From NCBI GenBank assembly GCA_964523905.1, contig CAZFYQ010000002.1, forward strand, positions 66,177-130,176: a stretch of 64,000 nt of DNA, in the 5' to 3' direction. Positions 6,740 through 64,000 of this stretch are shown in pieces. The notes under the pieces are model-generated. The model saw nothing but the letters and a program-made list of their open reading frames with translations, ran no database searches and had not been told where the DNA came from. Each line of letters begins with the position of its first letter. Within the stretch, counting starts at the first letter, position 1. The translations under genes and the position numbers were made by a program. This DNA comes from an uncultured Gammaproteobacteria bacterium. GTDB lineage: Bacteria > Patescibacteriota > Microgenomatia > Daviesbacterales > UBA10151.

Positions 6740-6805
6740 GAGGAAATTATATCCTATTCGCCACTTCGAAGCGTGGTTTGATCTCAACTGCTATAATACC
6801 CCCGT

Positions 6806-13007: not shown

Positions 13008-13112
13008 GAATGCAAGATTACAGTCTTCCGTGGACATTGCAATTTCTGCTACTTCTTGTAAACTTAAGAAGACCGCTGACTTTCAGTCCGCGGAAGTTTA
13101 TACTCGATCAAT

Positions 13113-14297: not shown

Positions 14298-15412
14298 AAC
14301 TGCTTTTGATTTCCATTCCGGGAATTTTACTAATTAGTTTACTGGTTAGTGCACTTTTTCCACTACAATATCAGCCCCAGCCACTTTTTTTATCCGAATT
14401 AATAAATCATTCTCTTGGTGTTCCTTGGCAAATAATGCCGCTGTTTTGGTTGGGTAATTTGATTGTGATTTTTCTAATTGGCAAGCAATTATTTAATCGA
14501 AAACTGGGGTTACTCAGCAGTTTGATTTATAGCATAACACCCTATTTTGCTTATCTAACAGTTGCCGGTTCTTTTTACCTATATTTAAGCTTTTGGTTTT
14601 TGTTGCTATATTACGCTTTGTTAAAATCTAAACAGGGAAATTTATTCAAAGCAGTAGTAGTGATTAGTGTGGCAATAATTTGTTTTAGCTCTTTGTTTGG
14701 AGTGGTTTTATTAACTGGAGTAGCTTTTCTTAATCAGTCACGAATTTTTCTTAAAAGCTTAGCAGTATCAATAATAATTTTAGCTGTCTTTTGTTCTTTA
14801 AATTTTGCCGCTTTTAAAAATATTGCCAGTAATCAGATTACTTTTTTAGCCGACCCGGCGGTTTATCACAATGTGGACATTTTTCAAGGTGAGTCAAAGG
14901 CAGCTGGATACAAAATTGTAAGTCGATTAGTGGAGAATAAATATTTATACATTAGTAAATATCTATTATTAAAATTTTTGACAAATATTAATCCTTTAAT
15001 CTTTTTTACTGCTCAGGAAAAAATGTTGGGATTTTCTTTTACACCGCCTTTTTATCTAGGTTTATTAATACCTTTTTTCTTTGGGCTTTATAAACTGTTA
15101 CAAACCAAACAGATCAAAAAGTTAATCCTACTTTCTGTTATTTTGACATTACCGTCATTTTTCGGACAGAGTTTAATTGATTTAAACCGGGTAGTAATTC
15201 TGGCTCCGGTAATATTATTTGTGATCATTTTTGGACTGTGGGAAATTTATCAAATTAAATCTTTTACCATAAAAAAAACTATCTTGGGGTTGATGATGCT
15301 AATGCTGATAGTGCAAGTCTTAAGCATGTGTTTCGATATTAGGATGAGGGAATATCCTCGTTTTTTAAGATATCAAAGTAACTTTTATAATTTTAGTTTA
15401 GGGAAACAATGA
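14294..15412 (+). CDS. Hypothetical polytopic membrane protein. It may be a divergent GT-C protein.
   Basis: It is 372 aa with many TM helices. Its start overlaps the upstream stop (ATGA). Confidence 0.4.
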   Translation: MKLLLISIPGILLISLLVSALFPLQYQPQPLFLSELINHSLGVPWQIMPLFWLGNLIVIFLIGKQLFNRKLGLLSSLIYSITPYFAYLTVAGSFYLYLSFWFLLLYYALLKSKQGNLFKAVVVISVAIICFSSLFGVVLLTGVAFLNQSRIFLKSLAVSIIILAVFCSLNFAAFKNIASNQITFLADPAVYHNVDIFQGESKAAGYKIVSRLVENKYLYISKYLLLKFLTNINPLIFFTAQEKMLGFSFTPPFYLGLLIPFFFGLYKLLQTKQIKKLILLSVILTLPSFFGQSLIDLNRVVILAPVILFVIIFGLWEIYQIKSFTIKKTILGLMMLMLIVQVLSMCFDIRMREYPRFLRYQSNFYNFSLGKQ

Positions 15413-17037
15413 GTAAGCAATTGACTGTTTTAATACTAATTCTACTAACTTTGTTTGGTGGGTTTTTACGATTTTATAAAAACACGGAGAATCCCCCCGC
15501 ACTAAATATTGATGAAGTTTCTTTTGGTTATAGCGCTTATTCTATTTTAAAAACCGGCCGCGATGAAAATAATGTTTTTATGCCGGTATTCTTCAAATCC
15601 ACAGGAGATTATAAAAGTCCTGTTTTAACCTATTCATTGGTACCGGCGATTGCGGTATTTGGTTTAAATGAGTTTAGTGTCAGATTTACCACGGCTTTAG
15701 CAGGTACATTATCCATACCGGTATTTTTCCTTTTACTAATTACCTTACTCAAAAACCAAAAAATAGCTTTATACGGGACTATATTACTTACAATTTCTCC
15801 TTGGCATATTTATTATTCCAGGTATGCATCTGAAAGTGTGATTGGTATTTTTTTACTACTACTGGGGTTATGGTGCTTTCTGAAGATGTTTGAGGGAGGT
15901 AAATTCTGGGCAGTAGCAGCATCATTTATGCTTGCTTTATCAATGTATAGCTATCTTTCACCAAGATTATTTATTCCCTTATTTTTGCTGACTATTTTTC
16001 TAAACAAGGCCCGGCAATTAAAAGCTAAATCAGCAAATGTCTGGATATTTATTTTCACTATCCTAATATTAATTTCACCAATGGTCTTTTTGCTGATTTG
16101 GGGTGGTGCTAATAAAAGAGCCGGAATGGTTTTTCTATCTCAGGATATCGACTATACCAGATACGTCATACTTGATCATTCGCATCGTTTAGGTGAGAAT
16201 TTTTTACTATTTTTCTTCTGGGCTAAAAGATATTTAAATTACTTCCAACCGGATTTTTTATTCTCAACAGGATTGAATATGACTATGGCAGGTTCAGGAG
16301 GTTTAGGGGTGCTTTATCTTTTTGAATTACCATGGCTTTGTTTGGGGTTTTTAAAACTAGCTAAAAACAAATTTCCGGGTAAGTCAATTATTATCTATTG
16401 GATTTTACTAGGAATTATACCGGCAACTTTAGCAAATAATGAGCTTAGTTCATCGAGAACTATGTTAGTAGCGCCCGCACTAATTACAATAGTAGCAATC
16501 GGATTAAATTATTTCACAGAATTAATTACTTCAGTAAAAAAAACTGCCCTTAAGATAAGTATCATGCTAATCTATTCAATTTTTATATTAATCATTTTAC
16601 TTCAAGCAATATTAGTATTTGTGGTTCATTTTCCGATACAACAAGGCGAGGCATTCATGGAAGGCACCAAAGAGAGCGTGTTATATGCAATTAATAACAA
16701 GGATCAATACAAAGAAATAGTTTACGATCCTTTTCGGGGGATAGAGGCGCCTAATATTGTAAATATTCCCTATATGTATATTTTGTTTTATTCAAAATAT
16801 GATCCGGCCAAATTTCAAACCGAGCCAAAAATATCAATTAATGATTCCTTTCATTTTGATAAATACACCATCAGAAGTATTAACTGGAGAGAACATGCGG
16901 ACCGGGAAAGGAAAGGTACTTTATTTATTGGTAGCCCTTGGAGTTTACCGGAAAAGGATTTAAAAGATGCTAGGATTTTAAAGAAAATTTACTTAAGTAA
17001 TGGTAGCTTGGCTTTAATAATTGTCACACCCAATTAG
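15409..17037 (+). CDS. PMT/ArnT-like GT-C glycosyltransferase (GT39/GT83-type).
   Basis: The loop-1 motif is NIDEVSFGYSAYSILKTGRDENNVFMPVFF. The protein is polytopic and 542 aa. The same motif recurs in 7 paralogs. Confidence 0.65.
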   Translation: MSKQLTVLILILLTLFGGFLRFYKNTENPPALNIDEVSFGYSAYSILKTGRDENNVFMPVFFKSTGDYKSPVLTYSLVPAIAVFGLNEFSVRFTTALAGTLSIPVFFLLLITLLKNQKIALYGTILLTISPWHIYYSRYASESVIGIFLLLLGLWCFLKMFEGGKFWAVAASFMLALSMYSYLSPRLFIPLFLLTIFLNKARQLKAKSANVWIFIFTILILISPMVFLLIWGGANKRAGMVFLSQDIDYTRYVILDHSHRLGENFLLFFFWAKRYLNYFQPDFLFSTGLNMTMAGSGGLGVLYLFELPWLCLGFLKLAKNKFPGKSIIIYWILLGIIPATLANNELSSSRTMLVAPALITIVAIGLNYFTELITSVKKTALKISIMLIYSIFILIILLQAILVFVVHFPIQQGEAFMEGTKESVLYAINNKDQYKEIVYDPFRGIEAPNIVNIPYMYILFYSKYDPAKFQTEPKISINDSFHFDKYTIRSINWREHADRERKGTLFIGSPWSLPEKDLKDARILKKIYLSNGSLALIIVTPN

Positions 17038-18200
17038 TTAAATAAACTGACGTTAGGGATTGGAGCACTGTTAGCTAGGATAAAGTTTTGGGCGTATAAA
17101 TAGATGGCTACGGCAATAATCGGCAGAATAATTTTAAATTCCCTACTCGTTAATACTTTTTCAAAAGCAATTAAAACAAATGGGGTAATTGGTAAAATGT
17201 AACGGGAGACGTCACGATGGGCCACAAAAGCGGCGGCGGTTAAATAGGTCAACACAAAAATTGCCATTGGATATAATTTTTTCTTCCATAAAGTCACTCC
17301 GCCTAAAAAGCCTAAAATAAAAATATAAACAATATCCTCCAGCCAAATATCTCCCACCCAGAACTGGTTTTTGTTAAACACCTGAAAAGGTGGAAAAGTT
17401 AAGTGAATATTGTCTCCACTATGAAAGTAGGCCCAAAAATCTCCGTAACTTTGACTGAATAAATAGAATACTGCAAATAATCCTAGAGGAATTAGAAGAA
17501 GGGGAGAGTATTTTATATGGGTTTTCCAGGCTTTGCTAATAGTAAATGGTTTGTTAAGGAGTAATTGCCAATGAAAGTAAATTGCTAGAGCGATGAAAAG
17601 TAAAATCCCCGGGGGCCTGGTAACCTGTGCCAGTAAACCTGCTAACGCGCTATAAATTAAATAAGGGTATTTATTGGAATACTCAAACTTCATGAAAAAA
17701 TATACTGCCAGAATGGTAAAGAAAATAAAAGTTGGCTCAGATGCGCCCACACTATGGACAATTAACCAGCGGGCGGGTAGTAGCAGGAAGATAGTAGCAA
17801 GTAGTAAGGGATGATCGGATAGTTTAAAATCTTTGATTAAAAAGTAAAAGGCCCACACTGCCAAAATAGTAGAACCTAAAGTGATAAATAGCATTGATTT
17901 TAGGAATCCTAAAAAAGGTGCAAAAAGGGCAATTAATAAAGAAAACCCGGGAAAATGCGAGGCAAAGTAACTTGCCGGCAAAGATTGGGGAAGCTGGGCT
18001 ATTAAAGCCGAATTGTAAAAAGTTTTGGCAATAATTACATATTCCAAACCGTCAAAATTGCGATATATTGTGGCAAAGCCATTAGAAAAATTTAACCCCC
18101 AGAAATTTGGTAAAGCAAGTAGATGTGGTAGCCAAACTAAAAAAGTTACTGCTAAAACTAGTCCTAGTAAAATCCCCAGGTCTTTCGTTGTTTTGTGCAT
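17034..18200 (-). CDS. Polytopic membrane protein, putative GT-C mannosyltransferase-like (PIG-V/GT76-like).
   Basis: It is 388 aa with about 10 TM helices. The motif LLAQVTRPPGILLFIAL resembles 52125..53282 (AATRIFGILLLPAIL). Confidence 0.35.
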   Translation of the reverse strand: MHKTTKDLGILLGLVLAVTFLVWLPHLLALPNFWGLNFSNGFATIYRNFDGLEYVIIAKTFYNSALIAQLPQSLPASYFASHFPGFSLLIALFAPFLGFLKSMLFITLGSTILAVWAFYFLIKDFKLSDHPLLLATIFLLLPARWLIVHSVGASEPTFIFFTILAVYFFMKFEYSNKYPYLIYSALAGLLAQVTRPPGILLFIALAIYFHWQLLLNKPFTISKAWKTHIKYSPLLLIPLGLFAVFYLFSQSYGDFWAYFHSGDNIHLTFPPFQVFNKNQFWVGDIWLEDIVYIFILGFLGGVTLWKKKLYPMAIFVLTYLTAAAFVAHRDVSRYILPITPFVLIAFEKVLTSREFKIILPIIAVAIYLYAQNFILANSAPIPNVSLFN

Positions 18201-18225
18201 AATTTGATGTTAGCATATTACAAGA

Positions 18226-20358
18226 ATGATTAAAAACCTCTCGGTGTTTTTCCCGGTGTTTAATGAGGAAGGAAATATTGCTACCACGGTTGGTAAAGCG
18301 CTGGCTGTTTTGGAAAAATTAAACCTGGAACAATGTGAAGTAATTATCGTAAATGACGGCTCTACTGATGGAACCCAAAAAGTAGCCGATGAGTTGGCCA
18401 AGAAAAATTCCAGGGTGAGGGTGATTCATCATCCCAAAAATTTAGGCTATGGCGAGGCTTTAAAATCCGGTTTTTATAATGCCAAATATGAGGTAATTGT
18501 CTATACTGACGGTGATGGGCAGTTTGACTTTGCCGAAGTTTCTAAATTCCTGGAAAAAATTGAAACTGCAGATCTGGTGATTGGTCATCGCATCAAAAGA
18601 CAGGATCCACTTTTTCGGCTGTTATTTAAAGAAGGTTGGAAATTATCTTTGTTTGTAATTTTTAGATTAACTTTAAAAGATGTGGACTGTGGTTTTAAGA
18701 TGGTAAGACGCCAGGCTTTAGAAAAAATTTCTCACTTAGAATCTAGCCGGGGAGCGATGATCAATGCTGAACTGGCTATTAAAATTAAAAAAGCTCATTT
18801 AAGAACCGCTCAAGTGGGAGTTAATCATTATCCCAGGCTGTCTGGTAAACCAACTGGGGCCAATATTAATGTGATTTTTAAATCTTACTTAGATTTAGTG
18901 AAGTTATGGTGGAAATTAAAAACCGACAAAATGATTTCTGCCCTTATTATTTTGGTACTGATGCTGGCAGCTTTCCTGCGGCTTTACCAGATAGATCATT
19001 ATATGATCTTTCTGGGAGATGAAGGACGGGATGCGGTGATTGTGAAAGCGCTGGTGACAGGAGAGCATTATCCCCTAATTGGTCCACCTACATCAGTAGG
19101 AAATATTTATTTAGGACCAATGTATTACTACATGATGGCCATTCCAATGACCATTTTTTATCTAAATCCAGTGGCGGCATCAAGTATGGATGGGTTAATT
19201 GGAGTTTTTACTGTGGCTTTAATTTATCTTTTGGGGAAAATGTGGTTTGATAAAAAATCCGCTTTAGTGGCAGCTTTTCTATATGCCATTTCCCCTGTGA
19301 CCATCAGTTACAGCAATTTTTCCTGGAATCCCAATCCCCTGCCGTTTTTTTCCTTGATTTCTATTTTTAGTTTATACAAAATTCATCAAACCAAAAACTT
19401 TAATTGGCTGATATTAACCGGGTTGTCTTTGGCAGCGGCAGTGCAAATGCATTATCTGGCTTTGATTTTAATTCCGATTGCCGGGATACTTTGGTTAATG
19501 GAAATTATCCGCTACAAAAATTTAAATCATCTGATTTCCGGAACTTTGTTAGGGCTGGTGGCGTTTTTGCTTTTAATGTCTCCCCTGTTTTTGTTTGATT
19601 TAAAACATGACTTTATGAATGCCCGGTCAGTAAATCAGCTGTTTACAGGAACAACTTTTAAAGGAAATCTGCTGGATAATTTTTTAAGAATTCCTGATAT
19701 TTTTAACAATAAATTAATTGGCAGGTACATGGCCGGAGGAAATTTTTATCTGGCAGTAGTGATGTCAATTTTAGTAATTGCCGGGTTAATAGTTAACAGT
19801 GGTTGGCCTCTGTTAGCCTTAGGGATTTGGCTGGGGGTAGGGATTTTTTTGCTGTCTTTTTATCAGCAAAGTATTTATGATCATTACCTGGGATTTTTAA
19901 ATCCGGCACCATATCTTTTATTTGGATCACTTTTCTACAAAAGGAAATGGATGATGGCTTTGCCTTTGGCTGGACTACTACTGATATTAACCATTGTTAA
20001 TTTTCAAAAAAATCCTTTAAATAACCCTCCGAATAATCAGTTGCAAAGAACCAAAAATGTGGCTGGTTTTATCATCAGCAGGTCTGGGGAGCAGCCGTTT
20101 AATTTTGCTTTAATTGCCAAAAGCAATTATGATCCGGCTTATCAGTATTATTTAGATCTCTACGGACATAAGCCTTTGGTTTTGCCCACTGCAAAAGCTC
20201 AGCAATTATTTGTAGTGTGTGAAGATGCCCTGTGTGATCCAACACATAGTCCCAAATATGAAATCGCGGCCTTTGGCTATACAAAAATAGACTGGGAGCA
20301 GGATTTTGCCGGAGTTAAAATATACCGGCTGATTGCAAATCCCGGAGGTAAGCCTTGA
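18226..20358 (+). CDS. Fusion protein. The N-terminal part is a Dpm1/GtrB-like GT2 polyprenyl-phosphate sugar synthase. The C-terminal part is a GT-C (ArnT-like) membrane glycosyltransferase domain.
   Basis: Residues 1-230 read FFPVFNEEGNI...VNDGSTDGT...YTDGDGQF. Residues 235-710 are polytopic and carry the LGDEGRD loop motif. Confidence 0.65.
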   Translation: MIKNLSVFFPVFNEEGNIATTVGKALAVLEKLNLEQCEVIIVNDGSTDGTQKVADELAKKNSRVRVIHHPKNLGYGEALKSGFYNAKYEVIVYTDGDGQFDFAEVSKFLEKIETADLVIGHRIKRQDPLFRLLFKEGWKLSLFVIFRLTLKDVDCGFKMVRRQALEKISHLESSRGAMINAELAIKIKKAHLRTAQVGVNHYPRLSGKPTGANINVIFKSYLDLVKLWWKLKTDKMISALIILVLMLAAFLRLYQIDHYMIFLGDEGRDAVIVKALVTGEHYPLIGPPTSVGNIYLGPMYYYMMAIPMTIFYLNPVAASSMDGLIGVFTVALIYLLGKMWFDKKSALVAAFLYAISPVTISYSNFSWNPNPLPFFSLISIFSLYKIHQTKNFNWLILTGLSLAAAVQMHYLALILIPIAGILWLMEIIRYKNLNHLISGTLLGLVAFLLLMSPLFLFDLKHDFMNARSVNQLFTGTTFKGNLLDNFLRIPDIFNNKLIGRYMAGGNFYLAVVMSILVIAGLIVNSGWPLLALGIWLGVGIFLLSFYQQSIYDHYLGFLNPAPYLLFGSLFYKRKWMMALPLAGLLLILTIVNFQKNPLNNPPNNQLQRTKNVAGFIISRSGEQPFNFALIAKSNYDPAYQYYLDLYGHKPLVLPTAKAQQLFVVCEDALCDPTHSPKYEIAAFGYTKIDWEQDFAGVKIYRLIANPGGKP

Positions 20359-20359
20359 T

Positions 20360-20419
20360 TGTCACCCTGAACGCAGTGAAGGGTATAATCTTATATTCTT
20401 CGCTTTGCTCAGAATGACA
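20360..20419. repeat. Imperfect inverted repeat of about 60 nt, with 28-nt arms and TATAAT in and around the loop. The two arms are inverted copies of the GTCAYY..GAG..AGYGAAG element.
   Basis: The arm tgtcaccctgaacgcagtgaagggtata (20360..20387) pairs with the arm 20392..20419 (tatattcttcgctttgctcagaatgaca). There are 20 Watson-Crick and 4 G-U pairs out of 28. Confidence 0.45.
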
Positions 20420-20430
20420 AGGAATAAAAC

Positions 20431-21153
20431 ATGACTAAATTATCAGTAGTAATACCTTCTTATAACGAATCGAAGAACTTAAAAAACGGATCTTTGGATC
20501 AGGTGAAAGATTATCTTAAACAAAGTAAATTAAGCTATGAAATAATTATAGTAGATGATGGTTCCACAGATGCCTCAGTGGATTTAATAAAAAAATACCC
20601 TTTTCGTTTAATTCAAAATTCTCATGGTGGTAAAGCCATGGCAGTAATGACCGGTATGGAAAAAGCGACTGGTGACATCGTGCTGTTTACTGACATGGAC
20701 CAAGCCACTCCAATTAATCAGCTGGATAAATTCCTACCCAAATTTGAGGAGGGTTTTGATATTGTGATTGGTTCCCGAAGTGGCAGAAAAGGCGCCCCTT
20801 TTATCCGTAAATTATCGGCTTGGGGATTTTCAGTTTTAAGACGACTTATTTTAGGACTGCCTTTTTCCGATACTCAATGTGGTTTCAAAGCTTTCGACCA
20901 AAAAGCTATTAAAAAAATTATTCCTAGAATCAAAGGGGAGTGGGGAGTACTTCATTCTAAAACAGGAGCAGTAAATGCTGGTTTTGATGTAGAACTTTTA
21001 TACCTAGCCAAAAAATATGGCTTTAAAATTGCCGAAGTCCCCGTAGAATGGAACTATGTTGACACCGAGCGCGTCCAAGTAGTCAAAGATGCCGCGGCCG
21101 CCATCTATGACATGTTCCGCATTAGAATTAATGATCTTAAAGGAAAATACTAG
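20431..21153 (+). CDS. GT2 polyprenyl-phosphate sugar synthase (Dpm1/GtrB-like).
   Basis: It reads VVIPSYNESKNL...IIIVDDGSTDAS...FTDMDQAT and is 240 aa. Confidence 0.7.
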   Translation: MTKLSVVIPSYNESKNLKNGSLDQVKDYLKQSKLSYEIIIVDDGSTDASVDLIKKYPFRLIQNSHGGKAMAVMTGMEKATGDIVLFTDMDQATPINQLDKFLPKFEEGFDIVIGSRSGRKGAPFIRKLSAWGFSVLRRLILGLPFSDTQCGFKAFDQKAIKKIIPRIKGEWGVLHSKTGAVNAGFDVELLYLAKKYGFKIAEVPVEWNYVDTERVQVVKDAAAAIYDMFRIRINDLKGKY

Positions 21154-21207
21154 TATTGGGGATTTGTTGGGCTTGCCTAGTGGGCTTTGGGGACGTACAA
21201 TAAGTAG

Positions 21208-22719
21208 GTGGATTTTGTACGCAAAAATATTCTAAGTATTTCTGTTCTGTTGGGTTTAATTGCTGCCTATTTTCTAATTCGTATTCCTCATTTAACCTTA
21301 CAGCCGATTTTTGCTGATGAGGCCATCTACATCCGCTGGGCTCAGGTTATGAAATCTGAACCTACTTTGCGCTTTATTTCTTTATCCGATGGCAAAACCC
21401 CCTTATTTATGTGGCTAATGATTCCTTTATTTAAAGTAATTCATGATCCTTTAATGGCCGGCCGATTTTTATCAGTGATTTCCGGTTTTTTTACCTTGAT
21501 CGGGGTACTTTTATTAACCCGTAAAGTATTTGGTAGAAATGCCGCATTTTGGGCAGGACTTTTATATGTAATTACACCATACACTGTATTTTTTGATAGG
21601 ATGGCGCTGGTTGATTCTATGGAGTCCACCTTTACTGTCTGGATAATTTATCTGGCAATTTTGGTGGTGCAAAAAATGCGCTGGGATTTGGCCATGATAC
21701 TGGGATATTTACTGGGTGGTGTAGTGTTAACCAAAACCCCGGGAATGTTAAACAGTTTAATACTGCCGGTCTCCATCTTCGGATTCACACGGATTAAAAC
21801 GGATAAATATCGATTGCTACGGCTACTGTTGTTGTGGGCAGTAGCAATTGCCATCGCCTTAGTCATGTATAACATGCTGCGCCTGGGTCCGAATTTTCAA
21901 TCCTTATCTTCCCGCAATGCTGATTATGTTTTCTCACCGTTTGAACTAATGGGTAGACCGCTTGATCCATTTATTCCCCATTTTCATGACATTTCCGATT
22001 GGTTTCCCAAATTACTAACTTGGCCGGTGTTGGGACTTTTGGCAATTGGTTTATGGTTTCTTATTAAGAGTAAAAACAAACTGGGTTGGATGGTACTTTT
22101 GTGGGCATTGATACCAATGTTATTGTCAATGGCGTTTTTAAAAACCTTTACTGCTAGATATTTATTAACGTCTATTGCTCCGCTTTTGGTAATCGCCAGT
22201 TTTGGTGCTGCGGAATTACTGAAGATGATAAAGATACCAAATGTCGCAAAAGTCGCTGTAGTCGCAATAGTCGTGGGAGTATTGCCGCTGTGGTTTGATT
22301 TACAGTTAATTAACAATCCTCCCCCACCCAGTTTACCTAGAGAAGAAAGCCGGGGATATTTTGAAGAGTGGACTGCAGGATATGGTTTTAAACAAATTGC
22401 CAATTATTTAATTGCCCAAAAAGCTAAAGGATCGGTAGTGGTCGGGACTGATGGATATTTTGGTACTTTGCCGGATGGCTTATATATTTATTTGGATAAA
22501 GCTAATATCTCAATAGTTGGTGGGACCGGTACTATTTCTGCGAAGCTTCGCAACTCTGCCAAAGATCACCAAACCTATTATGTTGGTAATAAATTGGAAG
22601 TAGCAAAATCTGCTAAAAATTTATCTGAAATTATGGAATTTCCTAAAACTAGATCGTTAGATACTGGTTTACAAGATGCCACAGTGTTATGGCAAGTTTT
22701 ACCAATCAATGAAAAATAA
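21208..22719 (+). CDS. Divergent PMT/ArnT-like GT-C membrane glycosyltransferase with a GTG start.
   Basis: The DE loop is IFADEAIYIRWAQ. The protein is polytopic and 503 aa. Confidence 0.45.
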   Translation: MDFVRKNILSISVLLGLIAAYFLIRIPHLTLQPIFADEAIYIRWAQVMKSEPTLRFISLSDGKTPLFMWLMIPLFKVIHDPLMAGRFLSVISGFFTLIGVLLLTRKVFGRNAAFWAGLLYVITPYTVFFDRMALVDSMESTFTVWIIYLAILVVQKMRWDLAMILGYLLGGVVLTKTPGMLNSLILPVSIFGFTRIKTDKYRLLRLLLLWAVAIAIALVMYNMLRLGPNFQSLSSRNADYVFSPFELMGRPLDPFIPHFHDISDWFPKLLTWPVLGLLAIGLWFLIKSKNKLGWMVLLWALIPMLLSMAFLKTFTARYLLTSIAPLLVIASFGAAELLKMIKIPNVAKVAVVAIVVGVLPLWFDLQLINNPPPPSLPREESRGYFEEWTAGYGFKQIANYLIAQKAKGSVVVGTDGYFGTLPDGLYIYLDKANISIVGGTGTISAKLRNSAKDHQTYYVGNKLEVAKSAKNLSEIMEFPKTRSLDTGLQDATVLWQVLPINEK

Positions 22720-24346
22720 TTTACTGGCTTTAGTATTTTTAATTGTAATAACCATTCCAACATTACTGCCTTTTTTTAACGCCAGATTTTTTTATACTCA
22801 AGATTATATTTTTATTGCCCGTTTGCAACAAATGAGTACGGCTTTAGCTGACGGACAATTTCCGGTTCGCTGGGCTCCGGATTTGCGTTTTGGTGAGCCG
22901 ACTTTTAATTATTATGCTCCGTTTCCTTATTATATTGGCGCGTTAGTGCATCTTTTAGGAATTAACTATATCTGGACTGCCAAAATTTTATTTATGTTGG
23001 GCAGTATCTTGTCCGCCTTTGCAATGTATTTTTTCATCAAAGAATTATTAGGTCAAAAAGCCGGCCTGGTGTCGGCAGTGTTATATACATATGCGCCTTA
23101 CCGGGCAGTTGATATTTATGTTCGAGGATCTTTATCAGAGACCTGGGCTTTTATTTTTTTTCCTTTAATTTTTTATTATTGCCTAAAGATTGTAAAACAA
23201 ACTAGTTTAAAAAACGCTACCTTACTGGCTTTATCATTGGCCGGATTATTTTTAACACATAATGTGACTACCCTAATGTTTGCTCCTTTTTTAATTTTTT
23301 GGATGGGGTATTTAATTTGGCATTATCGTAATTTTAAAAGCCTGCTTTATTTTATTAAAGCTTTGGTTTTGGCTGTGGGACTGTCTGCCTTTTTTTTGTT
23401 GCCGGCTTTTTTGGAAAGAAATTTTATTCAGACCAAATATTTAACTGTTGGTTATTTTAATTTCCGGGCTCATTTTGTGGCAGTGCAGCAATTTTTCTCT
23501 TTATTTTGGGGATATGGTTCCTCTGTCTGGGGACCAGAAGATGGATTATCTTTTCAAGTGGGTTTAATTAATTGGTTAATTGTAGCAGCTGGAATAGTAG
23601 TGGGATTTATCAGCCGCAAAGACAAAAAAACTTTGGGGTTATTAATTTTTCTGGCAGTCAGTTTAGCTTTTTCAGTTTTTTTACAGCATAACAAATCAGC
23701 TTTTGTTTGGGAGGCATTTTCTTTAATGGCTTTTATTCAATTTCCCTGGCGGTTTTTGGCGATCTCCATTTTTATTGCGGCAATTGCCGGAGGAGTAATT
23801 ACGCCCATTTTCAAAAGCAAACAAAATATTTTTCTAGCGGTGATTATTATTGCCTCAATTGCGGCTACTTTTAATTATTTTAAGCCCAAAGAATATTCTG
23901 ATGACTCATTTTTTGATAAGTTTGTTAATGTTAGTAAAATGCATCAAGGCGTTGATTTAACTAAGGATTATCTACCAATTTGGGCGGAAAATACTGATAT
24001 CCCATTTTTCGAAACACTAAATGCTGTAAGCGGTAATATTTCGGTAACCGATATCAATAAAAGATCTACCTCCTTAACTGCTAAGATTAAAACTATCGAG
24101 GATAGTGAAGTTGTGGCTCCGATTACTTATTTCCCTGGTTGGCATGTTTTGGCTAATGGGCAGTCAGTTGCCGCTACTCCGGCCCCTCACACTGGTTTGA
24201 TTACGTTTAAATTACCAAAAGGGGAGTACAATGTAGCTATTGCCCTAACTGATACACCAATTCGGGTAATTGGTAACTGGGCCTCGCTATTTTCACTGGT
24301 GGTGGCAGCTGGATTTTTATTGATCGGTAAAAGATATTCCAAATGA
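22709..24346 (+). CDS. Large uncharacterised polytopic membrane protein (family A). It may be a GT-C or YfhO-like protein.
   Basis: It is about 545 aa with the conserved block FPVRWAPDLRFGEPTFNYYAPFPYYIGALVHLLG. The likely ATG is at 22709. Confidence 0.45.
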   Translation: MKNNLLALVFLIVITIPTLLPFFNARFFYTQDYIFIARLQQMSTALADGQFPVRWAPDLRFGEPTFNYYAPFPYYIGALVHLLGINYIWTAKILFMLGSILSAFAMYFFIKELLGQKAGLVSAVLYTYAPYRAVDIYVRGSLSETWAFIFFPLIFYYCLKIVKQTSLKNATLLALSLAGLFLTHNVTTLMFAPFLIFWMGYLIWHYRNFKSLLYFIKALVLAVGLSAFFLLPAFLERNFIQTKYLTVGYFNFRAHFVAVQQFFSLFWGYGSSVWGPEDGLSFQVGLINWLIVAAGIVVGFISRKDKKTLGLLIFLAVSLAFSVFLQHNKSAFVWEAFSLMAFIQFPWRFLAISIFIAAIAGGVITPIFKSKQNIFLAVIIIASIAATFNYFKPKEYSDDSFFDKFVNVSKMHQGVDLTKDYLPIWAENTDIPFFETLNAVSGNISVTDINKRSTSLTAKIKTIEDSEVVAPITYFPGWHVLANGQSVAATPAPHTGLITFKLPKGEYNVAIALTDTPIRVIGNWASLFSLVVAAGFLLIGKRYSK

Positions 24347-26051
24347 AAGATTTTTTAATTAAACACAAAGAGTTTTTACTGGGACTACTTTTGACTTTAA
24401 GTTTACTGTGGCCGCTGATGGCCGGCCCTTATTTTACCCATCATGACGATGTGCAAGTGATTAGGTTGTATGAGATGGATAAGTGTTTTAAGGATCATCA
24501 AATCCCTTGTCGTTGGGTGCCGGATTTGGGAGGACTGTATGGCTATCCGATTTTTAATTATTACGCACCAATGCCTATTATTTTGGAGAGTTAATTTATT
24601 TTCTAACTCATAGCTTGCTTGTTTCTGCCAAGGTGATGTTTGGGGTAAGTTTCATAGGTGCATATGTATTTATGTATCTTTTAGCTAGAAAATTCTGGGG
24701 TAATTTAGGAGGCGTCCTATCAGCCATTTTTTATAGTTTTGCGCCGTATCATAGTGTGGATTTTTATGTCAGAGGTGCAATGGGGGAAATGTGGGCCCTA
24801 ATGTTTTTTCCAGCCATTTTTTGGGCTTTAGCCCGGATGGAGGAAAATCCCAGTTTAGTTAATTTGGTACTTTTGGCACTAATGCAAGGACTGTTAATTG
24901 TTTCGCACAATTTATCAGCGATGCTGTTTTTACCAATTTGTTTGGTGTGGATGGTATTTTTGTATTTTAGAAACAAAAAGAAAAAATTTATTTGGTTTTC
25001 TTTTTTAGGATTTGTCCTGGGAATTTTACTTTCTTCTTTTTATCTTTTCCCAATGCTTTTTGAAAAACAATTAGTGCATGTTGATACCACCACCATTGGT
25101 TATTTCCACTATACCGAACATTTCAAGGGCTTAAAAAAATTATTCATTGAACGCACTTGGGGTTGGGGATCATCGGTTCGAGAAGTGCCGGGTGGAGAAA
25201 AAGACGGATTATCTTTCCAAATCGGCTGGGTGCATTTAGCAGCCTGGGCTTTGGCGCTTTTAACGGCTTTTTTATTATGGAAGAAGCAAAAATGGTTTAG
25301 TATCCTAATTATCTTAAGTACAGTAGCCACTTTATTTTCTGTATTTATGATACATCCTCGTTCGGAATTTATCTGGCGAGCAATTGATCCTTTAAAATAT
25401 ATCCAATTTCCCTGGAGATTTTTGATGCTAATTATATTTTTTATCTGTTTTACTTCCGGAAGTTTTATATTAACCAATCTTAAATTTAAAAAAATAATTT
25501 GGTGGGGGCTGATTATTTTAGTGGTCATACTTAACTTTTCTTATTTTGTTCCGGAAAAAATCATTCAAACAACTGACGCTATGCGGCTATCAGATGGTGA
25601 TTTTACCAACCAAATTAACCGTTCTATTTTTGATTATTTACCAATTTATGCTAAGGCTCCTCCAGGGGCACTGGCTGATAAAAGATATGAACTGCTAACC
25701 GGTGACTCAACAGTATTTAATTTTTATGAGGGTACCAACTGGATTAGTTTTGATACTTACACCCAAACACATACTATTATTCGTTTGTCACAGTATTATT
25801 TCCCGGACTGGAAGATTTTTGTTGACGGAAAAGAAACCATGATTGATTACCAAAATAACCCGCTTGGTTTAATGACGATTATTTTAGGCGAAGGAAATCA
25901 CCAGGTCAGAGCCAGGTTATATGATACGCCGGTCCGGTCAATTTCCAATTGGCTATCAGTTGCCACCATGTTAGCGCTTTTGACAATCTATATTATTAGT
26001 TTTAAAAAAGTCCGCAAATGGATTGCTTATTACCGGAAGGGGATTAATTAA
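24343..26051 (+). pseudogene. Frameshifted paralog of 22709..24346, split into an 83-aa N-terminal piece and a 478-aa piece.
   Basis: Frame 1 reads ...FNYYAPMPIILES* with the stop at 24592..24594. Frame 3 continues from about 24576 as YYFGELIYFLTHSLLVSAKVMFGVSF. The two pieces align collinearly to the upstream paralog across the break. Confidence 0.55.
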
Positions 26052-27480
26052 AGTGGGGGATGGTGTTAAAAAAAAGATTGCTAAGGGGTTTTTAAGTTTA
26101 ACTTTTCGAAAAGCAATTTTACTGGCCATTAATTATTTAACCATTAATATTGTGCTGGCGCGGATTTTGCCGGTTTCCACAATTGGGGTATTTAATATTG
26201 CCTCCTCAATTTTAGCTTTTTTTGCATTTTTTTCTGATATTGGTTTGGCCGCCTCTTTAATCCAAAAAAAAGAAATATCTCTGGAAGATATTAAAACCAC
26301 CTTTACTATCCAGACTATCTTAGCTTTTTCAATCAGCATTATTGTGTTTTTAGCTGCTCCTTATTTTGCTAATTTATATAATCTGGATTTTCAAGGCATG
26401 TGGTTAGTTCGCACTTTAGCCCTAAGTTTTTTCCTAGTTTCTTTAAAAGTAGTGCCCTCGGTTTTGCTGGAGCGGGACTTAAGATTTCAGCCACTGGTAG
26501 CAATTGAAGTAGCAGAAACAATTGTTTTTAATTTGATTTTAACTTTTCTGGTTTTCTCGGGTTTATCAGTTTCTTCTTTTAGTTATGCCACTGCTGCCAG
26601 AAGTATCATTGGAGTGATCTTAATCTATTCCTGGGCACCGTGGAAAGTTTCTTTAGGAGTTTCCAGACAATCAATCAGAGCTTTGCTTAGTTTTGGTTTG
26701 CCGTTTCAGCTAAATTCTTTACTGGCTTTACTAAAAGATCGCTTAGTTCCTCTGGTGATTGCCCGGATGGTTGGTAGTGTGGGAGTAGGACTAATTACCT
26801 GGTCTCAAAGTTTGGCTTTCCTACCTTTAGAGGTGATGAATATTATGACTCGGGTGACTTTTCCGGCTTTTTCCCGCTTGGCTGATAACAAAGAGCACTT
26901 AAGGGAGACTTTAGAAGATTCCTTGTTTGCAACCGGTGTGGTTTTATATCCAATGTTATTTGGATTAAATGCGGTCACTCATAGTTTAATAACGCATGTA
27001 GTATCCAGTAAGTGGCAGCTTGCAGAACCCTTAGTCCACTTGTTTTCAATCGGTGCTTTTTTTGCCACCTTATCCTCTCCTTTTACCAATTTTTTAAACG
27101 CCATTGGCAAGGTCAAAACTACTTTAAAATTAATGGTGATGTGGACGGTTTTAGAATGGTTACTGACTCCGGTATTAACTGTCTACTACGGTTTTTTAGG
27201 TGCCGGAATGGCCTCGGCTTTAATTTCTGTGACCTCAATTATTCCTTTGTTAATTATTAAGAAAATGATGAAAATTGATGTGTTAAAAAATATTTGGCAG
27301 CCGATTTTTGCCTCAGTGGTAATGGGGTTACTGGTTTATATCTTAAGTCCAATGGTAGTTTATAATTTTTTAAGTTTACTTATTCTGGTAGTTATTAGTG
27401 GGCTTTTTTATGTTGGTTTAATGTTACTTTTGGCTAAAAATAGAATGGTGAAATATTATCAAAGTTTTAAACATGGTTAA
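26023..27480 (+). CDS. Wzx-like oligosaccharide flippase / polysaccharide biosynthesis protein (MOP superfamily).
   Basis: It has about 12-14 TM helices and the N-terminal motif KGFLSLTFRKAILLAINYL. The start is uncertain. An in-frame GTG at 26053 lies just after the upstream stop. Confidence 0.55.
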   Translation: MLITGRGLIKVGDGVKKKIAKGFLSLTFRKAILLAINYLTINIVLARILPVSTIGVFNIASSILAFFAFFSDIGLAASLIQKKEISLEDIKTTFTIQTILAFSISIIVFLAAPYFANLYNLDFQGMWLVRTLALSFFLVSLKVVPSVLLERDLRFQPLVAIEVAETIVFNLILTFLVFSGLSVSSFSYATAARSIIGVILIYSWAPWKVSLGVSRQSIRALLSFGLPFQLNSLLALLKDRLVPLVIARMVGSVGVGLITWSQSLAFLPLEVMNIMTRVTFPAFSRLADNKEHLRETLEDSLFATGVVLYPMLFGLNAVTHSLITHVVSSKWQLAEPLVHLFSIGAFFATLSSPFTNFLNAIGKVKTTLKLMVMWTVLEWLLTPVLTVYYGFLGAGMASALISVTSIIPLLIIKKMMKIDVLKNIWQPIFASVVMGLLVYILSPMVVYNFLSLLILVVISGLFYVGLMLLLAKNRMVKYYQSFKHG

Positions 27481-30400
27481 ACTAATTGCTTTAATACTGA
27501 CAATATTTGCTTTTACAACTCCGGTTTTTGCCTCGGGAAATAATTTTGTTAATGTGGTAAATCCGGTAAGAGGTGGAGATTTTTGGTCAATTACCAATCA
27601 GCAGCCGGAAACTGTGGTGGAAGGACAAATTCAAATTTTAAATAAGCTGAATTTACCAGCTACCTGGCTGCTTCGCTTCGACGCCTTAGAAAATCAAAAG
27701 ATTATCACTGATTTAAATAGTCCCATTGATCAAAAAGGTCTATTTTTAGAAGTTACTCCTACTTGGGCCAAGGAGGCAGGAGTAACTTATCAAACAGGAC
27801 CTAGTTGGCATGATGCTGGCAGCGCTTTATTAACCGGCTACAGTCCTAGTGACAGAATAAAGCTAATTGATAGCGCTTTTAATAAATTCAAACAGACTGT
27901 TGGGTTTTATCCAAAAGCAGTTGGTGCTTGGTGGATAGATGCCTATTCCCTGGACTACATGCAAAAAAAATATGGTATTACCTCAAGTATGATAGTTTCC
28001 GATCAGTATAGTACGGATAATTACCAGATCTGGGGCCAGTATTTTTCTACTCCTTACTACCCGGCATTGAAAAACGCTTTGCACCCGGCACAGACCGTGG
28101 ATAATAAAATCCCAGTGGTGATGTTACAGTGGGCGCCTCGTGATCCGGTTAATTCATATGGTAATGGGGTATTTGAAAGTACATTTAGTGTTCAACCAAA
28201 TGATTATATTGATTATCATAAACTAGATGCTAAATATTTCACCAATTTACTAGATTTATATCAAAGCCAAAAGTTTAATAAATTTTCTGAAGTGGTAGTA
28301 GGTTTAGAAAATACTTATCAGTGGAGCAATTATTCTGCGGAATACCAAAACCAAATGCAGGTTTTAGCAAACCAAAGAAATAGTGGGAAAATTTCTTTAA
28401 TAACTATGGATGGGTTTGCTTCCTTTTATAAACAAGCTTTTCCGGATTTATCCCCTACTCAAATAATTGTTGGAAGTGATCCTCTAGGCACTGATAAAAA
28501 AGTAGTCTGGTATATGAATCCCTATTACCGGGCTGGGTGGTTTTACAATAATGAAGGTGCTTTATTTAGGGATATCCGTCAGTATGTTGATGGACAAGAG
28601 GAGCTTTGTTTTAGTACCAGATGCTCGACTGTTAATTTTGCTACCTCTGCCACCAGGGTGTTGGATGAAGTTAGTTTTGGCCAAAAATTATTGCTGGACT
28701 CGGGGAAAATTTCCAATTTTGATGTCACTCAAAATGCAGATAAATTTGTTTTAACATATCAGAACGAAGCCGGTAAACAAAGAGAGGTGGGTTTTCTGCC
28801 CCGGGATATTGAAATTGACGGCAAGGTTAGTTCAATTGATACCACTATTTTAAATGCCACCAAAAATAGTACGAGTAAGTCACCTACGGTTAACCAGACT
28901 ATTAGCGGTCCGTTTATTTTTTCTGTTTCATCAACCATTTTAGAATCCTTAAAGTTTCTACTATTTATAACTTTTGGCATGGTGATTCCGGGAATAGTAT
29001 TTACTAGACTGGCAATTAACCAAAAGTTGGGTTCATTAAACAGATTATTTTTATCAGCTGTTAGCGGTTTGGTGGTTTTTACTTTAATCTTTTATCTTTT
29101 GGCAGAATTTAAATTAACTGTTTTAATTTATGTTTATCTGATTTTGTCATTACTAATCTTTTTGTGGTTTTATGTTAAGGATACTTTAAGTATGGCCTTA
29201 CCAAAAATTAAAAGTATCTATGACTTAGGACTTGTGATCATAGTTACTTTGGGAACTATTTTTCAAGTCCTGCCTACTTTTCAAAGCGGTTTACGGTTTG
29301 GATATGGCATGGGACTGTGGGGACCTAATACCCATGATGGAATGTGGCATCTGGCGTTGATTAATCAGTTATTAAAACAAGTGCCACCGCAAAACCCGAT
29401 TTTTGCCAGAACTATCTTAAAAAATTATCACTATCTATATGATTTATTAGTTGCTGCTACTGTTTCCATATCTAAAGTTCCTGCCACTGATTTAGTATTT
29501 AGATTTTATCCAATCTTATTCTCACTACTTTTGGGAATTGGCAGTTATTATTTAATATCCCGATTATTTAATCAAAAATCTCTGATAAAAATTAAATTAA
29601 TTTCCTTATTTAGTTTGTATTTTATTTACTTTGCCGGATCATTTGGTTGGATTGTGGAATATATTCATCAAAAACATTGGGGAGGGGAGTCGGCTTTTTG
29701 GGCTAACCAATCAATCTCTTTTAATCTTAATCCACCGTTTGCCATCTCTTTGGTAATTATGATTGCGCTATTACAGTTGTTGCCATATTTATCTACTAAA
29801 AACCGAGGGCTCATTATTTTACTATCAATAATTTCCGGAGCTTTAATTTCTTTTAAAGCTTATGCTGGTATTTTAGTATTATCAACACTTCTAACAGTAG
29901 CCATACTAAAACGATCCATGTCCCATTTGTCAGTTTTTGTGCTTAGTTTTTTATTATCAGCATTACTATTTTTATCCAATTTTTCTGTTGGTCAAAGTCT
30001 AATTATGGTTTCACCATTTTGGTTTGTAAATTCAATGATTGATGCACCGGATCGGGTTGGTTGGTATAGGCTTTCTTTAACACGGAATGTGGGACTGGCT
30101 ACTGGTAATTGGTTTAAGTTTATTGGCGCGGAAATTATTAGTCTAGTAATTTTTATTGCGGGGAATTTGGGTACTAGGGTATTTGCGTTAATTAGTTTGA
30201 TTAAATTAAAAGCTATTTGGAAAAATAATCACTATCTATTTTTGCTAATCTTAGGACTCTTTTCATTACTAATTCCGATTATTTTTATTCAGGCAGGAAA
30301 CCCTTGGAATACTATCCAATTTATCTATTACTTTTTATATTTAGCTGCCTTAATAAACGGTGTAGTCATGGTTAAAATGCTAACAAAGTTTAACAAGGTA

Positions 30401-30895
30401 GTAGGTTTTTTACTGTGTTTCGTAATTTTAACCTTAACACCAATTAATGCTTGGACTACTGCTAAGGGTTACCTAAACGAGCAACCTCATGCTTATATCA
30501 GTAATGATGAGTTAAGTGCTTTACAATTTCTTAAGGATCAGCCGGATGGAGTGGTACTGACCTATCCTTATGATAGTAATCTAAAAGGCGGTATTGCCCA
30601 GCCCTGGCCACTGGTTGCCTATGACAGCACGGCTTATGTAGCAGCTTTTAGTAATAAACCAAGTTTTCTGGAAGATGAAGCCCAAAACCAGATTTTATTA
30701 ACTAATAATCAAAAGAGATTAATTGCATCAAAAGATTTTTTTACCCAGCCAAATCCTGATTTAAATTTTCTAAGGAAAAATCAGATTAAATACATTTATC
30801 TTCCCAAAATATATAATGTAAGGGTTGATCAAAGTCAGGGTAGCATTAAAACTTTGCTGGAAAATAGCCAGGTAGTTATTTATGAAATCAATTAG
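27473..30895 (+). CDS. Very large protein (family B). It has a signal peptide, an extracytoplasmic domain of about 480 aa and a polytopic domain of about 650 aa.
   Basis: It is 1140 aa. The membrane domain block HDGMWHLALINQLLKQVPPQNPIFA is shared with 34397..36376 (HDGLWHISLMQEYQKGYPLQNPVFA). Confidence 0.5.
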   Translation: MVKLIALILTIFAFTTPVFASGNNFVNVVNPVRGGDFWSITNQQPETVVEGQIQILNKLNLPATWLLRFDALENQKIITDLNSPIDQKGLFLEVTPTWAKEAGVTYQTGPSWHDAGSALLTGYSPSDRIKLIDSAFNKFKQTVGFYPKAVGAWWIDAYSLDYMQKKYGITSSMIVSDQYSTDNYQIWGQYFSTPYYPALKNALHPAQTVDNKIPVVMLQWAPRDPVNSYGNGVFESTFSVQPNDYIDYHKLDAKYFTNLLDLYQSQKFNKFSEVVVGLENTYQWSNYSAEYQNQMQVLANQRNSGKISLITMDGFASFYKQAFPDLSPTQIIVGSDPLGTDKKVVWYMNPYYRAGWFYNNEGALFRDIRQYVDGQEELCFSTRCSTVNFATSATRVLDEVSFGQKLLLDSGKISNFDVTQNADKFVLTYQNEAGKQREVGFLPRDIEIDGKVSSIDTTILNATKNSTSKSPTVNQTISGPFIFSVSSTILESLKFLLFITFGMVIPGIVFTRLAINQKLGSLNRLFLSAVSGLVVFTLIFYLLAEFKLTVLIYVYLILSLLIFLWFYVKDTLSMALPKIKSIYDLGLVIIVTLGTIFQVLPTFQSGLRFGYGMGLWGPNTHDGMWHLALINQLLKQVPPQNPIFARTILKNYHYLYDLLVAATVSISKVPATDLVFRFYPILFSLLLGIGSYYLISRLFNQKSLIKIKLISLFSLYFIYFAGSFGWIVEYIHQKHWGGESAFWANQSISFNLNPPFAISLVIMIALLQLLPYLSTKNRGLIILLSIISGALISFKAYAGILVLSTLLTVAILKRSMSHLSVFVLSFLLSALLFLSNFSVGQSLIMVSPFWFVNSMIDAPDRVGWYRLSLTRNVGLATGNWFKFIGAEIISLVIFIAGNLGTRVFALISLIKLKAIWKNNHYLFLLILGLFSLLIPIIFIQAGNPWNTIQFIYYFLYLAALINGVVMVKMLTKFNKVVGFLLCFVILTLTPINAWTTAKGYLNEQPHAYISNDELSALQFLKDQPDGVVLTYPYDSNLKGGIAQPWPLVAYDSTAYVAAFSNKPSFLEDEAQNQILLTNNQKRLIASKDFFTQPNPDLNFLRKNQIKYIYLPKIYNVRVDQSQGSIKTLLENSQVVIYEIN

Positions 30896-32504
30896 TAAAT
30901 CAATTCAAATACTACTGCTCATACTGTTTGTGGCATTAATTTTGCGAGTGGTTTTTATTAACTCCAGCCCGCTTTCTTTATACGGCGATGAATTGACGAT
31001 TACCTTAGACGCTAATTCTTTAATTCGTACCGGTTACGATCAGTTGGGTAATATTTTACCTTTAACTTTTCCAATGGGAGCAGGTAGACCAGGAGGATAT
31101 GTTTATTTTTCAATGCCGTTTATGCTGCTTTTTGGCCCAACTGCCTTAGGAGTTAGAGCACTGTCTATCTTATCAGGTCTGGGAATTATTACGCTTTTAT
31201 ATTTTATCTGTAGAAAATTATTTTCTGAGAAAGCCGCAGTAATGGTGGCAATTATGGCAGCAATTGATCCTTGGGAAATCTCTTTAAGCAGGGGAGGGTT
31301 TGAGGCTCATTTTGCTCTGTTTTTGCTACTTTTGGGACTTTATTTTCTGTTAAAAGCTAAGGAAAAGCCTATTTTTTATTTATGGTCAGCTATTAGTTTG
31401 GGTCTGACAGTGCACACCTATCCTACATATAAAGTGACCTTGCCCTTGTTTTTACTGCTGGCTGTTTGGTTTATTGGATTTAAACAAATGATTGGTGAAT
31501 CGAGAAAATATTTTATCAGTGGCCTGGTGATTTTATGTTTAATTGGACTAGTGGCTTTTAGCCAAACTTTTATTGGTGGATCGGAAGTGAGATTTTTTAG
31601 TATCAATGTTTTTTCACAAACAGATATTAAAGCAATGATTGAACAAAAACTTAATCTGGAAAGAAGTATCACAGTTTTGCCAGAATCTTTGGCGAAATTT
31701 TTTCATAATAAACCAGTTGAGTATTTCAAAATTTTATCTGAAAATTATTTACATAATTTTTCCTTTGATTTTTTGTTTATTCATGGTGACCGTAACCCCC
31801 GACATAATATGACCACCATGGGCGAATTTTACGCAGCAGAAATGGTTCTGATATTAATTGGACTGTTGTCTTTGGCGGGAAACAAAAAAACTTTGTTTTT
31901 TTTGATAAGCTGGATTTTAATTGGTCCTTTGGCTAGTGCGGTGATCGGAGACCCACATGCTTTAAGAAGTGCTTTGGAATTTGCTCCATTAACTATTTTA
32001 TCTGGCCTTGGGCTGCTTGCGTTATATAACCAAAAAAGTAAATTGCCATTAATGCTGGTCAGTTTTGCTTTAATTATACAAATGATTTTCTTTTTGCAAA
32101 AATTATATTTTCTGGCACCTAGGGAATATGCCAATTTCTGGGCCTATTCGGCAAAATTGGCAACCAATATTGTGTTAGAAAATAGATCTCAATATGATTA
32201 TATTTTTGTATCCGATCAAATTGACAGCGTAGAATTTGGTTATCCGGTTTATGCCAAGGTGAACCCGGCTGATGTGATTGATCGTAATAAAAATAAATAT
32301 CAGCTAAATGGCTTAAGTTTTAAAAAGTTTGATAATGTTTACGTAGGTTTTATTCCCAAAACTGACACTGAAAAATTTCTAAACACTATTAAAGGAAAAG
32401 TGTTATTTATTGGGGATGCGGAAATGAGTAAGTATTTAAAGGATTATCAAATTATCAAAGGAGAGGATAAATTTACCACCTTGATTGTAAGTAAACATCT
32501 GTAA
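30882..32504 (+). CDS. PMT/ArnT-like GT-C glycosyltransferase.
   Basis: The loop motif is LYGDELTITLDANSLIRTGYDQLGNILPLTF. It is 540 aa. Confidence 0.55.
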   Translation: MKSISKSIQILLLILFVALILRVVFINSSPLSLYGDELTITLDANSLIRTGYDQLGNILPLTFPMGAGRPGGYVYFSMPFMLLFGPTALGVRALSILSGLGIITLLYFICRKLFSEKAAVMVAIMAAIDPWEISLSRGGFEAHFALFLLLLGLYFLLKAKEKPIFYLWSAISLGLTVHTYPTYKVTLPLFLLLAVWFIGFKQMIGESRKYFISGLVILCLIGLVAFSQTFIGGSEVRFFSINVFSQTDIKAMIEQKLNLERSITVLPESLAKFFHNKPVEYFKILSENYLHNFSFDFLFIHGDRNPRHNMTTMGEFYAAEMVLILIGLLSLAGNKKTLFFLISWILIGPLASAVIGDPHALRSALEFAPLTILSGLGLLALYNQKSKLPLMLVSFALIIQMIFFLQKLYFLAPREYANFWAYSAKLATNIVLENRSQYDYIFVSDQIDSVEFGYPVYAKVNPADVIDRNKNKYQLNGLSFKKFDNVYVGFIPKTDTEKFLNTIKGKVLFIGDAEMSKYLKDYQIIKGEDKFTTLIVSKHL

Positions 32505-36376: not shown

Positions 36377-36464
36377 ATTCACATTATGCCAGAAAGGATC
36401 GTTAGAAACTAGCTGAAGGTGGATTTGATTTTACATACACCCCCTAAATTAGTAAGATAAGACT

Positions 36465-38149: not shown

Positions 38150-38161
38150 GGAAACATTATT

Positions 38162-46654: not shown

Positions 46655-46655
46655 G

Positions 46656-47282: not shown

Positions 47283-47308
47283 CCAGATCTTCATGCTATG
47301 ATTATGTT

Positions 47309-50301: not shown

Positions 50302-50303
50302 CA

Positions 50304-63955: not shown

Positions 63956-64000
63956 TGCTTTATCTTTTTTGCAATTGTTACCAAAGATGTTCCTATAGGA

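Follow-up and report, generated by a model that had tools for sequence, protein, structure and literature searches.

Tandem genes for predicted GT-C-fold glycosyltransferases in a Candidatus Daviesbacteria glycan cluster, and a private one-base break in the second of them

We analysed a 64,000-nucleotide stretch of DNA (the window) from contig CAZFYQ010000002.1 of assembly GCA_964523905.1, which has a GC content of 36% and whose homologs bear the names Candidatus Daviesbacteria or Patescibacteria. Its plus strand carries two tandem genes of the PF10131 (PTPS_related) family, predicted to encode membrane glycosyltransferases of the GT-C fold. The first gene (copy 1, 22709..24346, 545 aa) is intact, as its open reading frame (ORF), its Pfam match and the orthologs found in its place indicate, and the second (copy 2, 24343..26051) is interrupted by the absence of a single base from codon 78. 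We consider it an even chance that copy 2 is a very recent loss-of-function allele, private to this genome and created by a one-base deletion in this codon while copy 1 was retained.

The two genes are, judging from their alignment, tandem paralogs whose similarity is far beyond chance. The frame of copy 2 was corrected for this comparison by joining 24343..24576 (codons 1-78, frame 1) to 24576..26051 (frame 3), which gave a protein of 569 aa. Copy 1 and the corrected copy 2 shared 33% identity over 516 columns (E = 2e-90) and were collinear and unbroken across the junction, in agreement with the original prediction of collinear tandem paralogs at these positions. The blocks said to be shared, FPVRWAPDL... 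in copy 1 with IPCRWVPDL... in copy 2, and YAPYRAVDIYVRG... with FAPYHSVDFYVRG..., were also confirmed. The stop codon of copy 1 overlaps the start codon of copy 2 in the four bases ATGA (24343..24346), an overlap also present between the paralogs of the closest relatives. Copy 1 starts at 22709, as a longer alternative start at 22676 is used neither by its orthologs nor by the contig's own gene call, and that gene call opens the body of copy 2 at ATG 24636, giving a product of 471 aa. Donor or acceptor specificity is probably not the same in the two copies.

As the sequence stands, frame 1 of copy 2 reads ...NYYAPMPIILES* and ends at the stop codon 24592..24594, giving an 83-aa product, and frame 3, which is open from 24558 to 26051, reads ...YYFGELIYFLTHS... 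from 24576. The shift is of -1 and falls between 24575 and 24576; tblastn high-scoring segment pairs (HSPs) from the proteins of 30 relatives change from frame 1 to frame 3 at ~24576. Codons 1-78 (24343..24575, from the ORF and alignments) specify the first transmembrane (TM) helix and the first external loop (EL1) with its HHDD motif, and codons 79-569 (24576..26051, from the translation and a structure model) specify the other TM helices, a beta-sandwich and a C-terminal helix. An alignment of the first 330 nt of copy 2 with the orthologous DNA of three relatives (L001, L003 and L004) contained exactly one gap, in codon 78, placing the lesion at 24574..24578, where one base of CCN is gone ahead of TAT TAT. 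Here the orthologs read CTG GCT TAT TAT TTT GG or CTA CCC TAT TAT TTT GG and the window reads ATG CC- TAT TAT TTT GG, so that the frame translations and the three-ortholog alignment agree on the one-nucleotide change that had been predicted near 24576. Across the loci that we retrieved, codon 78 specifies Pro in nearly all cases (CCT in 17, CCC in nine, CCA in six, CCG in two and another codon in six), with TAY TAY next; the base lost from copy 2 is, on this alignment, one of CCN or one T of CCT|TAT.

The lesion had been assigned to a T/A-rich run, cctattatttt. This string is present, but the missing base belongs to CCN|TAT and the T run is as long as in the three aligned orthologs, with TAT TAT TTT GG identical in all four sequences and the T4 run at 24581-24584 unaltered. 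The other homopolymers within ~25 nt of the lesion are T5 (24551-24555), T3 (24595-24597) and T4 (24599-24602), and the missing base lies in none of these runs. A search for a homopolymer of six or more, or for a short tandem repeat, at or near the lesion found neither. Placing the deletion within the TTTT run, which would give ...PIIFGE..., was rejected because this reading would replace the invariant YY of PYYFGE and would require extra substitutions.

Comparison with orthologous loci showed that this break is private to the contig. Among the best 120 homologs of the repaired copy 2, 119 were uninterrupted, at 557-578 aa, and most orthologs had the same length as the repaired protein; the only short one (P0001, 471 aa) was 100% identical over 83% of the repaired query and is the contig's own C-terminal gene call. 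In tblastn searches with the repaired protein, each of the 25 genomic loci that have a complete ortholog matched in a single HSP of high identity without a break, and a single frame ran through the site in 40 of the 40 metagenome loci that cover residues 60-100. The split seen at the copy 2 lesion did not recur in any of these 119 homologs, 25 genomic loci and 40 metagenome loci. The idea that the orthologs might themselves be split as two bona fide genes is contradicted by their being single genes throughout.

Both copies matched PF10131 above its gathering cut-off of 26.4 bits (58.7 bits for copy 1 and 35.5 bits for the repaired copy 2); matches to PMT_2 were weaker in both (26.2 bits for copy 1), and NCBIfam held no model matching the family of the two copies. 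PF10131 is a member of the GT-C glycosyltransferase clan CL0111 and is listed as being of unknown function, and for related GT-C families the active site is described as a DD motif in EL1 (PMC7801869). In copy 2, H33-H34-D35-D36 directly follows the first hydrophobic helix, with D35 invariant across 30 orthologs and paralogs and D36 at least 90% conserved among orthologs. Also invariant in orthologs and paralogs are Q53, P55, R57, P60, G67, P69, F71 and the QFPWRFL block at 355-361, and Y79, Y80 and K97 are invariant as well.

An AlphaFold model of copy 2 (pLDDT 79.2, pTM 0.85) placed helices at 2-27 and 34-50 and gave the C-terminus an extracytoplasmic beta-sandwich (about 449-526) followed by a final helix. 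The top 21 Foldseek matches in the PDB were all GT-C enzymes (probability 0.99-1.00), with TMq values mostly of 0.35-0.45, modest scores that back the fold class rather than a subfamily. By sequence, even with a profile search, no PDB chain matched copy 2. The model and the Pfam matches together indicate that both proteins are GT-C-fold membrane glycosyltransferases. The earlier description of them as uncharacterised membrane proteins stands in that PF10131 is biochemically uncharacterised, but it undervalues a Pfam match above threshold and a structural match to STT3/PglB/ArnT/AftD. Four orthologs of copy 2 (P0020, P0083, P0084 and P0101) carry a precomputed Pfam match to STT3 (PF02516), and these matches, with best structural matches to STT3/PglB/AglB, hint that the family may be closer to oligosaccharyltransferases than to PMT/ArnT.

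In order to account for these observations, we propose that old tandem GT-C-fold paralogs of PF10131, lying inside a large surface-glycan cluster of a Candidatus Daviesbacteria (candidate phyla radiation, CPR) genome, would each act from the membrane, using a polyprenyl-phosphate-linked sugar supplied by neighbouring GT2 enzymes and transferring it, on the outer face, to an acceptor that may be a glycan or a protein, as their family suggests. The acidic HHDD motif of the first external loop, with D35 and D36, would be the putative catalytic centre. The idea of a polyprenyl-phosphate donor has its context in GT2 genes at 20431-21153, 13080-14297 (with a GtrA domain) and 18226-20358 (fused to PMT_2), and in the adjoining flippase gene. 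The private one-base deletion in codon 78 would then end translation after 83 residues, in a product that keeps the first helix and the DD loop, and any product of a downstream restart (residue 99 onwards) would be without this loop. Of the 41 columns that orthologs and paralogs share without exception, products restarted at TTG 24615 or ATG 24636 would lose 10, D35 among them, and Y79, Y80 and K97 would be lost as well. If the deletion is real, copy 2 is predicted to be non-functional, with the expected loss of one glycan-modification step. Copy 2 would thus be a very young loss-of-function allele in a genome that has kept copy 1 and more than 12 other GT-C genes. This redundancy, with at least 15 GT-C-type ORFs in the window and an array of 2 to 4 copies among relatives, makes the loss of copy 2 tolerable.

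The inference that the cells themselves, and not just the assembly, carry the deletion has several observations against it. The 491 codons past the break are open, and no further stop or frameshift occurs in copy 2. With L001, copy 2 shares 77.5% identity, more than copy 1 (69.5%) and the other GT-C neighbours do. Its share of the divergence on the window branch, relative to the other two branches, is within the range of the neighbouring genes, and its private changes at invariant columns (9/198) resemble those of the neighbours (10/184, 6/179 and 14/363) under matched taxon sampling. The ortholog is uninterrupted in every relative examined, and selection therefore normally keeps copy 2. Since copy 2 shows no extra decay, the break is either very recent or not real, and an assembly error would account equally well for this absence of decay and for the retention of the gene in all relatives. 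Look-ups of the exact 83-aa, 545-aa and 471-aa products found no other contig. Searches of metagenome contigs for the exact DNA pattern with zero or one base at the lesion gave no match, and protein-guided scans of genome and metagenome contigs returned only relatives of 78% identity or less and no DNA of the same species.

Two further candidates for evidence on this question were set aside. The 90% cluster of the 83-aa fragment has a 110-aa member, from another sample (SRR3989338), that reads through in frame, but it is a divergent ortholog and is uninformative about the source population. A second, compensated frameshift was considered at columns 445-464, where four deviations from near-invariant residues are clustered; each is a simple substitution, and the nearest relatives have one of the four as well.

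The explanation that survives best beside a real deletion is a consensus or assembly error, in which copy 2 is intact in the organism, at 569 aa, and only the deposited contig lacks the base; we rate this a little below an even chance. One inserted base restores the exact length of the orthologs with the invariant Y79, Y80 and K97 in place, and there is no second lesion, no acceleration of rate and no excess of changes at conserved positions in a gene that is never broken in the 119 homologs or in any related locus covering the site. The source is, moreover, a metagenome-type contig. However, the site is not a homopolymer run of four or more, and indel errors of long reads and of most short reads concentrate in homopolymers. 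The window has about 58 ORFs, and no frame switch other than that of copy 2 was detected among them. ORFs taken from stop to stop cover the window throughout, with the largest gap, of 212 nt, at the lesion site itself; the ORFs of relatives, compared with the window by tblastn, revealed no frame switch besides that at ~24576 in covered stretches of 10.7-39.2 kb; and Pfam scans of the remaining window ORFs gave domain matches and no split pairs. The window consensus is not generally indel-prone, because there is neither a second frame switch nor a split Pfam pair. A real mutation is slightly favoured by the clean consensus and by the position of the lesion outside a homopolymer, an error by the perfect preservation and universal retention of copy 2; this leaves the real deletion at about even odds and the error close behind. 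The original prediction had offered both an assembly or indel error and a recent pseudogenisation, and these are the two live options for a frame that is broken against intact orthologs and has decayed no further.

That prediction had also offered a slippery-site, phase-variable switch, in which slipped-strand mispairing in the T/A tract toggles copy 2 ON and OFF, as at a contingency locus, and so varies the surface glycan. Such a switch would suit a surface-glycan glycosyltransferase gene in an AT-rich region with T4 and T5 runs nearby, and glycosyltransferases of this kind are often phase-variable in host-associated bacteria. Contingency loci, however, have poly-G/poly-C or tetranucleotide tracts, as in Neisseria, Haemophilus and Campylobacter, and no homopolymer or short repeat of that sort marks this site, nor does a slippery heptamer. 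The base is missing from CCN|TAT, beside a TAT TAT TTT GG that is the same as in the three aligned orthologs, with the length of the T run unchanged. Furthermore, no relative has an out-of-frame allele at the site, in 25 genomic and 40 metagenome loci of which the closest has 78% protein identity. We regard the switch as very improbable.

Equally improbable, in our view, is that the break serves the production of protein, whether by programmed -1 ribosomal frameshifting, by transcriptional slippage or as a functional two-piece enzyme made of an 83-aa peptide (first TM helix and EL1) and a C-terminal body. With only about 35 nt (24558..24591) common to the two frames, a single -1 event would yield the full protein, and a GGAG at 24585-24588 is followed by ATG or TTG codons at 24615 and 24636. 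But the overlap, which reads TTA TTA CGC ACC AAT GCC TAT TAT TTT GGA GAG ..., has no X XXY YYZ heptamer in 0-frame phasing and no long A/T run, and preserving the conserved P-Y-Y would need a shift on CCU-AUU without re-pairing. The split is absent from all orthologs, each of which is one continuous ORF of 557-578 aa, and a restart at 24615 or 24636 would forfeit the stretch from residue 79 to about 98 and with it the invariant Y79, Y80 and K97.

If the deletion is not only real but also segregating, the Daviesbacteria population would contain functional and null alleles of one GT-C gene, which we consider unlikely, if less so than either of the last two explanations. The surface glycan would in that case vary from cell to cell by ordinary loss-of-function mutation, without a repeat-based switch. 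Such variation, possibly driven by pressure from phages or from attachment to a host, would fit the range of two to four array copies among related genomes. For annotation, the locus should be entered as a pair of PF10131/GT-C glycosyltransferase genes with a note that the second is frameshifted and may be a pseudogene or carry a sequencing error, rather than with the 83-aa and 471-aa products listed as proteins in their own right. Beyond such annotation hygiene the significance of the frameshift is small, and the cluster in which it lies is of greater interest.

The surrounding genes form an ordered series that is kept in the closest relatives: a PMT_2 gene, the two PF10131 genes (545 and 569 aa), a flippase gene and a gene for a protein of ~1140 aa. 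The first of these (21208..22719, plus strand) encodes a PMT_2-type GT-C glycosyltransferase of 503 aa by Pfam, overlaps the start of copy 1 in the same operon-like run and is syntenic in L001 and L004, where the place of copy 1 is taken by orthologs of 545 and 564 aa. Downstream of copy 2, the first start codon after its stop, 2 nt away at 26053, opens a plus-strand gene (26053..27480) of the Polysacc_synt_3/Polysacc_synt family (PF13440, 6e-51), the product of which we take, from its family, to be a Wzx-type flippase; in L001 and L004 its ortholog, of 475 aa, likewise comes after the 569-aa gene. A promoter and terminator scan around the junction of the two copies found nothing above chance level. 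Immediately after the flippase gene, a plus-strand ORF of 1140 aa (27473..30895) has no Pfam or NCBIfam match, and its translation appears by eye to be soluble in its N-terminal half and strongly hydrophobic in its C-terminal half. Its relatives, of 1138-1148 aa, lie in the same position, and one ortholog has a weak DUF3863 match. Just upstream of the PMT_2 gene, the closest relative carries a mobile-element-like block (L001 859..6800 / L002 300..3639) with genes for a Pif1-family helicase, an RNase_T exonuclease, RadC, an M78 peptidase, DUF5678 and an aspartyl-protease-like ORF; glycosyltransferase genes stand in the corresponding place in L004 and in the window.

All 25 genomic loci with a complete copy 2 ortholog have at least one paralog directly upstream. 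In eleven Daviesbacteria or Patescibacteria genomes (L009, L010, L016, L018, L019, L021-L023, L026, L027 and L030), three paralogs lie upstream, giving four tandem copies with 29-39% identity to copy 2 in an array that lies upstream of the match by about 3.7-10 kb. In the window, as in the genomes closest to it, the array has two copies. Because a paralog stands upstream in all 25 loci and four copies occur in eleven genomes, the duplication is, as far as gene content can tell, old, and the size of the array variable (2 to 4).

The glycan-biosynthesis region extends from about 9354 to the window end at 64000 (~50 kb) and contains dTDP-rhamnose-type nucleotide-sugar genes, GT2 and GT4 enzymes and two Polysacc_synt-family (flippase-type) genes, a very large investment for the small genome expected of a CPR organism. 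Its density of GT-C-type ORFs is exceptional, with at least 15 within 15397..53282: PMT_2/PMT-like ORFs starting at 15397, 18226, 21208, 30876, 40337, 41817, 43379, 44999, 47276 and 48655, the PF10131 ORFs at 22709 and 24343, a GT87/PIG-U-like ORF at 32495 and a PIG-V-like ORF at 52122. The ORFs 17034-18209 (minus strand) and 39211-40371 had no match in Pfam, and an ortholog of the first has a weak PMT_2 match in L004. The 710-aa ORF at 18226..20358 (plus strand) fuses a GT2 domain to a PMT_2/PMT GT-C domain and has a 723-aa ortholog with the same domains in L004. As GT2 enzymes of this kind include polyprenyl-phosphate sugar synthases, donor synthesis and transfer would share one polypeptide.

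Outside the glycan region, a plus-strand ORF of 115 aa (7971..8318) is TsaB-like; its match to the TsaD/TsaB Pfam profile (264 positions) is confined to positions 49-84, as a minimal TsaB or a truncated gene might show. The window begins with a TsaE gene on the minus strand (3..395). A release-factor gene on the minus strand (5663..6787), with PCRF and RF-1 domains and the SPF tripeptide of the RF2 type, is one uninterrupted ORF and lacks the in-frame stop and +1 programmed frameshift site carried by many bacterial prfB genes.

Compared with known systems, this locus is of a kind already familiar, as the family is catalogued, the orthologs are annotated in public records and a private one-base break is routine. 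Both copies exceed the threshold of PF10131, to which NCBI gives the name '6-pyruvoyl-tetrahydropterin synthase-related protein', and the database orthologs carry a precomputed PF10131 match and that name; the profile is matched only at about positions 1-326 of 621, and the C-terminal third of the copies, with the beta-sandwich and terminal helix, is left unmatched. With STT3/PglB/AglB, ArnT, AftD/AftA and DPY19, copy 2 shares a polytopic fold and a first external loop with an acidic DD motif, whereas identity to these best Foldseek matches, aligned over 420-520 columns, is 11-15%. The WWDYG-type periplasmic domain of oligosaccharyltransferases was not seen in copy 2, though no test was aimed at that domain. 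Phase-variable glycosyltransferase genes have in common with copy 2 a surface-glycan gene with an out-of-frame allele, but copy 2 is without their hypermutable repeat tract, and its relatives do not vary in length at the site. A further parallel is with the frameshifted pseudogenes and indel artefacts of metagenome-assembled genomes, which show the same single-base break in a conserved, intact gene, private to one assembly, and from which the break in copy 2 differs only in lying outside a homopolymer.

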